64,000 nt of DNA, taken from NCBI RefSeq assembly GCF_006345805.1, contig NC_042997.1, forward strand, positions 58,590,001 through 58,654,000, read 5' to 3'. Position numbers and translations under genes: made by a program. The notes beneath the pieces are model-generated. The model searched no databases. It was not told where the DNA came from and saw only the letters and a list, made by a program, of their open reading frames with translations. This stretch comes from Octopus sinensis. Its lineage: Eukaryota. This document shows positions 1,330-5,580 of this stretch, one piece after another; position 1 is the stretch's first letter, and each line of letters opens with the position of its first letter.

Positions 1330-1386
<57 letters not shown>

Positions 1387-1429
1387 TATTGATAGGAATA
1401 TCGCCAATAATAATAAATGCAATCACTCG

Positions 1430-1950
1430 TTGAATTTGGGATTGGATAGTAAAAATAATTGTAACACTATTAATGGGAACATAGTTACAGAAATTTTGGC
1501 CAATGTTAGATTACCCCAACCTGTTGATAACTGTAATTTCAGAAACAGGAATCAATGTGTGTTTGGTAATCAATGCCTCAAGAGAGAGGCAGTTTATCAA
1601 TGCACTGTGGGTACACAATATAGCAGTAGGGTATACATCGGAGCAACTATGAATAGCATGAAACATAGACTTAATTATCATAGATATACTTTTAGAAATA
1701 AAAATAGGATGTACGCTACGGGTTAAGTACGTATATTTGGGAACTCAAAAGTAAGAACATAGATTTTAAATTAAATTGGAAAATACTAACTTCTGCACCT
1801 GTATATAATAGTAAAAATAAAAAATGCTCTCTATGTATTAATGACATTTTTTTCATCATCAAAGCTGGTATGCTTATTGTTAATAATATTAATGAGCGGA
1901 ATTTTTTTTGCATTCATAAACTACCGTACACTTTCTCTAGATTTAAATAG
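1430..1950 (+). pseudogene. Penelope-like GIY-YIG endonuclease C-terminal domain, frameshifted near 1723
   Basis: NCNFRNRNQCVFGNQCL..AVYQCTV..VYIGAT..KHRLNYH, then after a 1-nt shift LSTYIWELK..NWKIL..YNSKNKKCSLC..NINE..FCIHK*; matches the Cys-rich PLE GIY-YIG pattern. Confidence 0.9.
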
Positions 1951-2329
1951 AACTTAGCTTTTCTACTAGTAATATTTTAACTTTCCTCTACATCTGATTG
2001 TACTAGTGGTCTTTACAATTTGAAACATACAACTTGTAAATTTATAATCTTGTAGCTACACATATATATAAATATATGTTCTGTATTGATTGTTTTTTGT
2101 TTTTTGTCCTGGCTTATAAGGGAAATACACTGGGATATGAATATATATATTTTGGTATATACACAGCAATATGATATTCATGGGGATTTCCAAAATTGTT
2201 GAGTGTGTATGAGTACCATAGTTCGGGAAGCTGGTTTTAGATACTGTAATACTAATATGTAATATGTAATAAATGCGAGTCTATATTGAATGTACATTGT
2301 TTGTTTTGGATGAGTATATGGGTTTTTGC

Positions 2330-2770
2330 AGGTATTTATTTGGCAGTCTTATATATTGTATATTTAGTGTATCTTTGTACTCATCTTAATTTGTATCTTA
2401 TGTTATTTATTAATAAATCTATTCATTTACTTATATTTGGCTTTATACATATTAGCAGTCTTATATATTTAGATTATATTTGTACTCATCTTGATTTGTA
2501 CTTTATGTTATTTCTCTATTTATTTATTCATTTATCTATATGTAAATATTTACATAATAGCAGCCTGTATACTAAGTTTATCTATGTACTCATTTTAATG
2601 TATATTTTTTATTTTATTTTATGTTATTTATCTATTTATCTATTCATTTATGTATATGTGGATATATACATATTAGCAGTATTATATATTAAGTTTACCT
2701 TTGTATTTATCTTAATTTGTATTCTATGGTATTTATCTATTTATTTATTCATTTATTTATTTATATGTAG
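2330..2770. repeat. Degenerate ~110-bp tandem repeat, about 4 units
   Basis: Recurring TAGCAGTCTTATATATT...TTTGTACTCATCTTAATTTGTA near 2342, 2453, 2558 and 2674. Confidence 0.7.
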
Positions 2771-4360
2771 ATATATACATACATATCCATTATTTATTAA
2801 AATATATATATATGTATACAAGCTTTTACTTATATTTTCATTTTAATTTTAATTACTTCATCTTATTTTATTTTATTACATTTTAATTTTAAGTAATAAC
2901 AATTATTAACTTATAATTAATTTAATTTACAATTATTTACTTATATACTATTTATTGGTAAGTCCTGTTAATTACTATATATGTATTTATGCGTCCACTG
3001 ATATTATTTAATGCTAAAACCTGTTAATTATTATATATGTATTTATGTGTCCACTGATACTTAAAAAATATATATATATAAGTACTAGGAATGTTTACAC
3101 GCACATCATATGTGAAAATATATGGTGTGTATGTATATGTTTGTTGTTACACATGAGTATACATATGGATATGTAGATGTGAGTGTAATTCTATTAGTTC
3201 GTTTATGAGGGTTTAAATAGGAATATAATAGTATTGTAATAATACTAGACTTCTTACGTAGTGATGTTATCTGTATAAGCTATAAGGAGTTATTTTGATT
3301 ATATATCTTAGAATATTAGCGTATTTTGACTTTTTACAATTAATTTCTTATAATTTAATTATTATAAACCTCTGTTAACTTAGTATATATATATTTTTAT
3401 GTCTTTTGATAGACAAACATAAACGGGTATTCTATATTTTATAATTTAGTGAATGTTTGAATGAAACATAGCGGTAAAGTTGCGGGCATTTTTAGTTCTA
3501 AAATATTTTGTTTACGAGAAATATGGTGTCACATGAATTATGTACCTTATGACAAATTACACTCTCCATCTGGATATAATTATATGTATGATTGCATTTA
3601 CGGATTTATGGACATATGTGAGTGGATCTGTTTGTAAATACTTAGTTAATACCACCGCCATGGTGCCATCCGGGGCGGGTGGATGTCTGCATGCATGTAT
3701 GTGCAATCGGTTGAGTTCCTCAGTTTGCATGTGTATAGTTGGGATAGTACCTCTTATGTTATTTATTTATTTATTTATTTATGATTTGGTTGTGTATGTG
3801 GGTATGTCTGTGTGTATGTATATATGTGTGTGGGTGTGGGTATGTGTGTATACATATAACCATGTATGTATGTGCGCACGCTTTGTGGATGTGCGTGCGC
3901 GTGTGTATGTTTCCTAGCTAACTAACCGTAAAATTTCTATTGTAATCCAAATTTAAAAGTATAGGCCAATCGAATCCATCTGTGAAAATTAATACCATGC
4001 GGGCAGAGGAATTTGACTGATTGCGTATATATGCGGATGTCCGCTTGCATTGGATGGTACCGTCGTGGTGATATTAATTTTATTGACTTTTTGTGAAATG
4101 ACACATTTTAATATATTGGACTGTTTAATATATATGCCTGCTTTGAGTGTGAGTGTATCTGTTGTGGTTTCTTGATGTTGGTTGAGGAGCTGTGGAGTTC
4201 AATATGGAACATTATTGTGTTTGTTGATGTATATTGATCTATATTGTTTATATTGTATTATTGTGTATATATATATATGTAAGAATATGAGTGTGTATGC
4301 ACACATATTTATATTTATATGTAAATTTTTTAGGATTTGTACTCATACTTGCATTAAAAT

Positions 4361-4470
4361 CTCTGAAGAGGCCGTGAGATATTCTTGTTAATGTCTCATT
4401 TATACCTGCTTTATATGGCTAATAGGTTAAATGAGACATACCTGTCTTCACGGCCGAAACAGCTGTCAGC
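4361..4470 (+). ncRNA. Type I hammerhead ribozyme with extended stem II
   Basis: CUGAAGA 4363-4369; stem II GGCCGUGA/UCACGGCC; inner 12-bp helix 4391-4402/4428-4439; GAAA 4456-4459; palindromic stem III ACAGCUGU; GUC site at 4467; stem I only 2 bp. Confidence 0.8.
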
Positions 4471-4631
4471 TACAATGTAAATGTATTTCTATTTCTATTT
4501 CTATGTCTTGTTATATTTGTACTATATTAATGTATAATATCATTGCTATTGTGTAGTGGTTTAATAAAGTATCGATTGGGTATTATCTGATAGTTGATGA
4601 TTGATTTAGATATATTTCTCCATTTTCTCAT

Positions 4632-4682
<51 letters not shown>

Positions 4683-5029: not shown

Positions 5030-5580
5030 AAAATGTAATCAGGGTATCATCTACCGATGAGACATACTGTTGTATCTAGGACACTGTAAAACGAGATCCG
5101 TCGGAAGGATAAGCCCCAAGGATAAAGAAATAAGAACCTACAGTATGGTGGAAGCCATAGCCACTCATAATAAAAAGGAGTACTGGCGGGATGTCCTAGT
5201 GAAAACCTCAATAAAATGTAAATACAATAGACCTGACATAATGATTTGGGATAAAGAAGAGAAACTGTGTACAGTTGTGGAAATCAGTTGCCCAGTGGAT
5301 GTTAACATAAAGTTAAAGATCAGCAAAAATATACCTACACTGAACTATTGAGTAATTGGCAGTTACTCTATCTAGATTGTAAGTTCAGGTCGCTTATTCT
5401 ACATTAACGTAATTATTGGGGCACTGGGATAGGTAACACACTGCCTAAATACCAATCTTGAGAAATCAGGCTTTTCAAAACCAGAAAGGAGAAAGCTGAT
5501 TCGAAGACCACAGATCCAATCCATCACTGGAGCTGTAAAAATCTGAAAAATTTTCCAGAAGTTTATCATTTAAATTTATA
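5030..5580 (+). mobile_element. RLE-type non-LTR retrotransposon, C-terminal fragment, decayed
   Basis: YWRDVLVKTSIKCKYNRPDIMIWDKEEKLCTVVEISCPVD and downstream IIGALG: PD-(D/E)xK restriction-like endonuclease. Confidence 0.85.

Follow-up and report, generated by a model that had tools for sequence, protein, structure and literature searches.

The stretch of DNA analysed in this study (hereafter the window) comprises 64,000 nucleotides of Octopus sinensis (contig NC_042997.1, positions 58,590,001 to 58,654,000 of the forward strand), and all positions given below refer to it. It contains a truncated Penelope-like element (PLE) whose features are collected in Table 1. The copy is bounded by (TA)n tracts at about 1327-1385 and 4638-4681, as read directly from its flanks, and its 3' UTR harbors the long helix that is the subject of this work. 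The frame of the endonuclease remnant is disrupted near 1708-1726. Comparison of this ORF with the own genome retrieved 150 scored tblastn-type matches, and nothing significant was obtained for it against Pfam and PDB sequences. The hammerhead region (4340-4500) folds at z=-4.6 and is conserved across the family; Rfam gave no matches within the window at gathering scores, below which the hammerhead core falls. Degenerate direct repeats of ~100-120 nt, common to the family, occupy positions 2354-2781 within the 3' UTR. Outside the element, a 96-aa open frame at 5061-5351 with a weak DUF7390 match (E=0.067) is likely a fragment of another repeat, and a repeat search of the window yielded only (TA)n among the 25 longest pairs of the matches listed.

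Table 1. Features of the PLE copy, in window coordinates.
Feature	Position	Strand	Remarks
5'-truncated Hydra-like Penelope-like element copy	1386..4640 (end about 4640)	+	Collinear with long family copies
C-terminal CxCX5C linker and GIY-YIG-type endonuclease remnant	1386..1950	+	ORFs 1316-1726 and 1708-1950
Left arm: 86-nt inverted duplication of the right arm	3645..3730	+	Missing from armless copies
Loop between the arms	3731..3995	+	GT-rich microsatellite inside; internal unpaired control
Right arm: original 3' UTR sequence	3996..4078	+	A-state in 12 relatives
Older A>G cluster	4008..4351 (core 4086-4255)	+	Pre-duplication; pairing partner not retained
Hammerhead ribozyme core of the pseudo-LTR	4363..4459	+	CUGAAGA at 4363, GAAA at 4456

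The class of the element was assigned through its relatives. Copy L138 retains a 960-aa open frame in which reverse transcriptase (RT) motifs precede the endonuclease (FDIQNYYTSI, GSPDS, YRDD, YLD and VY...YIG), that is, a single ORF with RT followed by a GIY-YIG-type endonuclease. The same frame contains DKT at 151, RWR at 50 (one conservative difference from RWK), CNCRNKNKC at 822 as the CxCX5C linker, CSLC at 920 (CxxC) and CIH (CxH). Pseudo-LTRs form a direct repeat in L138 and inverted arms in L131, L139, L140 and L143. This agrees with the Hydra clade of PLEs as described by Craig et al. (PMC8557442), in which a single ORF carries RT and then a GIY-YIG-type endonuclease with DKT, RW[K/R], CxCX5C, CxxC and CxH motifs, accompanied by a hammerhead, (TA)n targets, and direct and inverted pseudo-LTRs; ORF layout, motifs, linker, hammerhead, targets and pseudo-LTRs are all present here. 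The likeness is one of motifs, RWR standing in place of RWK, and the unit differs in length: whereas Hydra-clade elements are generally under 3 kb, the period of the direct repeat in L138 gives about 5.6 kb, of which an unusually long 3' UTR forms part. Because of this length, which is only a tendency in that description, the element is called Hydra-like. Family copies L126-L165 form a single ladder-shaped lineage, with 960-aa open frames at its young end (L137, L138).

When the left arm was aligned with the reverse complement of the right one, positions 3646-3731 were found to pair with 3996-4077 through 57 Watson-Crick and 21 G-U pairs, with 4 mismatches (C-A, C-C, G-A and A-A) and a 4-nt GCAT bulge, in exact agreement with the hand count of the initial annotation, which had included a single A-C. 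The G lies on the left in 12 of the G-U pairs and on the right in 9. The segment 3630-4100 folds on the + strand at -171.4 kcal/mol (z=-8.2; 0/100 shuffles equally stable), whereas the - strand reaches only -97.6 kcal/mol, and the energies of the helix duplex itself are -112.5 and -63.2, respectively. ORFs and motif positions place the endonuclease remnant and the hammerhead core on this same + strand, as had been stated before. Against a composition-based expectation, a G-U:A-C ratio of 21:1 has P=0.004-0.025, and taken alone it is evidence of moderate weight. The tally across the whole window consists mostly of simple repeats and hence offers no clean control; three of its inverted matches (52545-52732/53224-53424, 10631-10766/11002-11131 and 10630-10733/28539-28638), with G-U:A-C counts of 25:3, 24:1 and 15:0, are probably simple repeats as well. 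The question is settled by a polarised comparison with relatives lacking the left arm, not by the raw ratio.

Such relatives provided a natural control set, drawn from 40 scored candidates in the own genome. Some family copies match both sides of the left arm but lack the arm itself, the two sides meeting with 2-nt microhomology at a 3644/3731 joint. The 86 bases absent from them correspond to the right arm in reverse complement, and the ends share 2-3 nt of microhomology. The joint is also present in contigs of sequencing runs X16 and X17, and contigs of three runs contain both A and G states, so that neither is an assembly artefact. The A-state set comprises 12 copies, ten with a visible joint and two (L076, L078) truncated such that the armless state is not visible. 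At the nine right-arm positions at which a G of the window faces U (4001-4003, 4015, 4025, 4035, 4039, 4043 and 4062), these copies keep A, in 12/12 for seven sites and in 10/12 for 4015 and 4062. Among armless copies, L072 has G at 4015 and L074 has G at 4062; position 4015 is also G in the oldest group. In the oldest copies the right-arm region includes a longer segment (128 nt more in L097 and L101) that was deleted before the duplication, and in L089 it contains a stretch resembling window positions 3420-3475.

The direction of change was established on trees built without the arms, which used 69 rows for the 3' flank, 42 for the near 5' flank, 23 for positions 1400-2700 and 51 for the endonuclease region. 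All four recovered the same single ladder, as from descent of the copies from one master lineage. An IQ-TREE analysis of 37 rows (14/51 having been dropped as near-duplicates, short rows or the long-branched L134), rooted with 9 distant copies, grouped the armed and later copies into one clade (98/94). AU tests rejected three alternatives: placing the root at the far end (p=7e-7), placing it between L126-type and armed copies (p=2e-35), and uniting the armless copies in a clade (p=8e-4). Since the outgroup may consist of older members of the same ladder, the root also leans on branch lengths and frame integrity; indeed, terminal branches get shorter as L138 is approached (rho=-0.41, p=0.004, n=49). 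On these phylogenetic grounds the root of the ladder is its armless end. The use of L126-L139 as outgroups, or of L138 as root, with the armless state as derived, was considered and ruled out after rooting with more distant copies. With the ladder rooted at the armless end, and the older copies both armless and carrying A at the nine right-arm G's, the left arm is an inverted duplication that arose later than the armless state, and the data show both the event and its direction in time.

Once polarised, the changes in the arms proved to be mostly A>G. In the left arm, all 12 differences (12/12) between the group majority and the complement of the armless right arm are A>G, apart from a repeated GCAT (the window copy has 12 A>G changes and the additional GCAT at 3689-3692), and in the right arm 9/13 changes from the late A-state are A>G. 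Taken together, 21/25 group-majority changes in the arms are A>G, with 1 T>C and no C>T. The initial annotation had held that every G-U pair is explainable by A>G; this stands for 20/21 of those in the window and fails for 3713-4014, which is due to C>T in the right arm of the window copy. A further A>G at 3662 is hidden from the G-U count because its partner 4061 turned C.

The changes keep to the duplex. When more armed copies are taken in, 22/50 paired A's turned to G versus 9/591 outside the arms in the same steps (p=3e-20), and between the armless and window-type groups none of the 60 loop A's did so (0/60). Polarisation as A>G versus C>T, which had been called for at the outset together with a test of ADAR neighbour preference, gave A>G for each of the two arms as read on the + strand. 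As for the neighbours, A's preceded by G are avoided: in the arms 0/7 of them changed, compared with 22/43 of the others (p=0.014), and pooling the arms with the older cluster described below gives 1/22 versus 49/134 (p=0.002). Two sites with a 5' G, 3714 and 4007, did become G in some copies. By 5' neighbour, the changed A's in the arms amount to 10/17 after C, 5/10 after A, 7/16 after U and 0/7 after G, so that C is the commonest neighbour of edited sites (10/22), followed by U (7). The textbook order of ADAR preference is U>A>C>G; C is not disfavoured here, which counts against a perfect fit. ADARs also spare duplex ends, a point touched on in PMC3113232, and A's close to the ends of this duplex are mostly unchanged.

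The bias persists among armed copies, whose A>G differences from their group are concentrated in the arms, at ~7 times the density of the flanks (18/600 versus 20/4508, p=5e-8), part of this excess being the same stepwise series described below; G>A and C>T show no enrichment in the arms. Outside the arms the lineage changed in another manner, with T>C (47), G>A (38) and A>T (35) all exceeding A>G (28). Inverted pseudo-LTR arms at family insertions decay evenly (e.g., 7 G-U to 9 A-C in L140). As a separate observation, substitutions on the backbone of the element (2100-4604, outside the arms) are strand-asymmetric, with T>C 47 versus A>G 28, A>T 35 versus T>A 14 and C>A 22 versus G>T 7, and may reflect the error spectrum of the reverse transcriptase of the element.

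Edits accumulated in steps. Out of the 22 sites, 16 are edited in L008, 19 in L009, 20 in L003 and L006, 21 in the window copy, and all 22 in L002, L005 and L014. The sets are largely nested along the copies, indicating that editing recurred in a replicating lineage, and the first 16 are common to all armed copies, from which it follows that one edited daughter became the next master. The truncated copies L027, L079 and L199 have the same five right-arm edits as L008, and L191 adds 4025, representing a right-arm intermediate. Nesting is broken at 3668, which is G in L009 and A in L003, L004, L006 and the window, and in the 3' tree L009 branches closer to the armless copies than L008, against its edit count. 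A scan of each aligned copy for private clusters (>=5 transitions in 150 nt) found no private A>G cluster in 71 rows, so the bursts are shared lineage events.

An older episode precedes the duplication. In the step from the oldest armless group (L143, L097 and L101) to the next, 28/114 A's became G within 4000-4360, versus 5/402 elsewhere (p=2e-15). The sites are A in these three copies and in L164, and L164 and more distant copies have A at most of them. Taken alone, this cluster shows only weak, non-significant avoidance of 5' G, with 1/15 changes after G versus 27/91 after other bases (p=0.11), and its other 5' neighbours are U (20/55), A (6/22) and C (1/14). No partner strand was found in the 19 loci where one was sought. 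Family insertions often carry an inverted 5' pseudo-LTR covering the region of the older cluster, a type of structure described for Hydra-clade PLEs (PMC8557442), and such an arm would be able to supply the pairing partner. Elsewhere along the ladder, A>G changes never exceed 5 per 100 nt in any step. The youngest, intact group still retains some of the G's that date from the two episodes.

The best explanation appears to be that the A-to-G changes arose by ADAR editing of paired element RNA and were fixed by reverse transcription, a reading to which we assign a probability of about 0.88. One of the two options raised by the initial annotation, a fossil of RNA editing, thereby gains support from the + strand A>G changes in both arms, their confinement to the duplex, the avoidance of 5' G and their stepwise accumulation. 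According to this scenario, the left arm would have originated from a template switch at the 2-3 nt microhomology, during either reverse transcription or DNA replication. The RNA of the founder would have formed a near-perfect duplex of about -167 kcal/mol; none of the 9 matches from a pattern search for an armed but unedited founder proved to be one, so that the perfect founder is a reconstruction. ADAR would then have deaminated the paired element RNA, the reverse transcriptase would have copied inosine as G, and each new genomic copy with its edits could seed the next round. One daughter with about 16 edits presumably became the new master, and later masters would have reached up to 21-22/50 A's. 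The setting was probably the germline, given that the copies are chromosomal and common to several runs. The older cluster may derive from a similar event, probably through pairing with the inverted 5' pseudo-LTR of one master copy.

The postulated enzyme has candidates in the own genome, where 17 A_deamin matches were found, the best piece reaching E=3e-79 against the human ADAR2 deaminase domain; judged by this similarity, the genome encodes ADAR-type deaminases. One locus (L176, G000:C2502:263721-264758), which has a whole-domain A_deamin match in one stretch and six stops, is possibly a processed ADAR pseudogene. Contigs of four runs, guessed to be RNA although no run with the family is recorded as such, contained family variants indistinguishable from editing. 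In human ADARs, the 5' neighbour weighs most, C and G being less preferred (PMC3113232), and G upstream of the edited A is depleted across animals (Porath et al., PMC5625713). The proposed origin of the left arm resembles short-range template-switch inversions, in which sequence from close by is inserted as its reverse complement in a single step, yielding a perfect hairpin (PMC7954356, PMC10710096), as expected here; it differs from those cases in lying within a retrotransposon, 265 nt from its source, with either a DNA polymerase or a reverse transcriptase as candidates.

The later fate of the helix was followed by counting pair fates along the ladder. After the group of the window, 25 backbone changes fell on paired sites, of which 14 break pairs, 9 keep them and 2 restore them, one pair being changed on both sides. 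Mismatches rise from 3 to 15, the duplex energy weakens from -133 kcal/mol in L008 to -16 kcal/mol in L138, with about -60 in between, half of the left arm is deleted, and a (TTA)n tract expands in the right arm. This microsatellite, at window position 4067-4068 in later subfamilies (e.g., L021, L064 and L141), grows along the ladder. The decay argues against a conserved structure, and the G-U pairs are best explained as a scar rather than a functional fold.

The other option of the initial annotation, a selected RNA structure in which G-U pairs are kept for a functional fold and A-C mismatches are purged, has several points in its favor: only the sense strand folds strongly, later groups still have 20 to 24 G-U pairs, a double change turned C-G into U-A at 3671/4052, T>C at 4061 restored a G-C pair with the edited 3662, and among armed copies T>C is rarer in the arms than in the flanks (0/934 versus 35/6315, p=0.02). 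Such selection should accept C>U as well, yet the two building steps comprise 21 A>G and no C>T by group majorities, and the family had spread before the arm existed. The decay just described, with 14/25 later changes breaking pairs, largely refutes this idea, which we regard as very improbable. A general G/T strand skew acting on a neutrally decaying DNA inverted repeat, also raised at the outset, draws on the G- and T-rich + strand of the element (GT/AC 2.3-3.4). Even so, 21 of 22 retains the low P given above, the polarised changes are A>G only, at about 50-fold the rate of the flanks, inverted arms that the family truly formed at the DNA level show even decay, and the skew is itself partly a product of the two A>G clusters. 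This explanation was rejected, T>C exceeding A>G outside the arms, and deserves next to no credence.

Hardly credible, too, is a reversed history with an ancestral armed, G-rich state from which armless copies lost the left arm while G turned to A. It could appeal to the diverged L126-L139, in which several right-arm sites are G and half of the left arm is present, but these are the youngest relatives, not the oldest. Moreover, nine G>A changes would be needed exactly at G's facing U of an arm under deletion, and the AU tests reject this order within the present data set. The main rival, itself improbable, is a duplex-confined mutator other than ADAR, either reverse transcriptase misincorporation while displacing a paired strand or another deaminase acting on RNA or on a DNA hairpin. 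It would likewise be strand-specific and limited to the arms, the enzyme is known here only by inference, and the neighbour order of the arms (C, A, U, G) departs from the textbook one. Nevertheless, the background strand bias of the lineage consists of T>C and A>T rather than A>G, 5' G is avoided, both arms changed on the same strand, which a mutator of double-stranded DNA would not achieve, and the 44% of A's changed is near the nearly 50% of ADAR-edited retroviral inverted repeats (PMC12925331).

ADAR editing, the preferred reading, has precedents of several kinds. ADAR-type A-to-G hypermutation was described in avian retroviruses, in U3 of Rous-associated virus and in an inverted repeat of avian leukosis virus (Felder, 1994; Hajjar and Linial, 1995; both as cited in PMC12925331 and PMC8586724). 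Those cases share with ours A>G runs in a retroelement inverted repeat, affecting nearly half of the A's and put into DNA by reverse transcription. In contrast, they concern single virus isolates or clones, while here the element is an endogenous non-viral retrotransposon with edits in chromosomal copies, whose unedited ancestors lie in the same genome and whose edits were gained over several rounds and passed to later subfamilies. The "DNA editing" of vertebrate LTR retrotransposons by APOBECs, in which cytidine deamination of cDNA produces G>A, was reported to be absent from 19 invertebrate genomes (Knisbacher and Levanon, PMC4866542). It is similar in that a host deaminase causes strand-biased hypermutation in genome-fixed retroelement copies, and unlike the present case in that the changes here are A>G, depend on RNA pairing and affect a PLE rather than an LTR element; APOBEC scars may thus be viewed as a genomic analogue of the PLE edits (PMC4866542, PMC2873906). 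Porath et al. (PMC5625713) reported A-to-I hyper-editing of repeat transcripts, including lizard Penelope, and found octopus to be very highly hyper-edited. Both studies point to ADAR acting on Penelope RNA and to a depletion of upstream G, whereas their edits are RNA-versus-DNA differences and the changes here stand in DNA. Among full-text articles searched by titles and abstract openings, a body of literature with subscription journals mostly uncovered and without supplements, none dealt with ADAR edits fixed in a retrotransposon lineage. What was already known is ADAR-type hypermutation of inverted repeats; what is new is its stepwise inheritance along a replicating master lineage.

These results bear on how host editing and retrotransposons interact. 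RNA editing is ordinarily transient; in this family, RNA edits likely became heritable mutations that were handed to later copies, and the reverse transcriptase of the PLE appears able to copy heavily edited RNA and to read through a long helix. Two cautions arise for the analysis of repeats: strand-asymmetric helices rich in G-U can be mistaken there for selected RNA structure, and bursts of editing make repeats look older than they are. Heritable editing appears in a lineage that is still replicating, with ancestors, intermediates and descendants in one genome, and the lineage thus provides a series through time of ADAR activity, likely in the germline, and of its site preference. A wider proposal, offered tentatively and with more doubt than confidence, is that ADAR repeatedly mutated the active master lineage in the germline, editing loosening the duplex whenever the element had gained a perfect one while the edited copies went on replicating and possibly escaped double-stranded-RNA surveillance. 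The lineage would then hold a dated multi-round record, with G's that last into its youngest and intact subfamily. It also becomes testable whether retrotransposons are held back or aided by editing.
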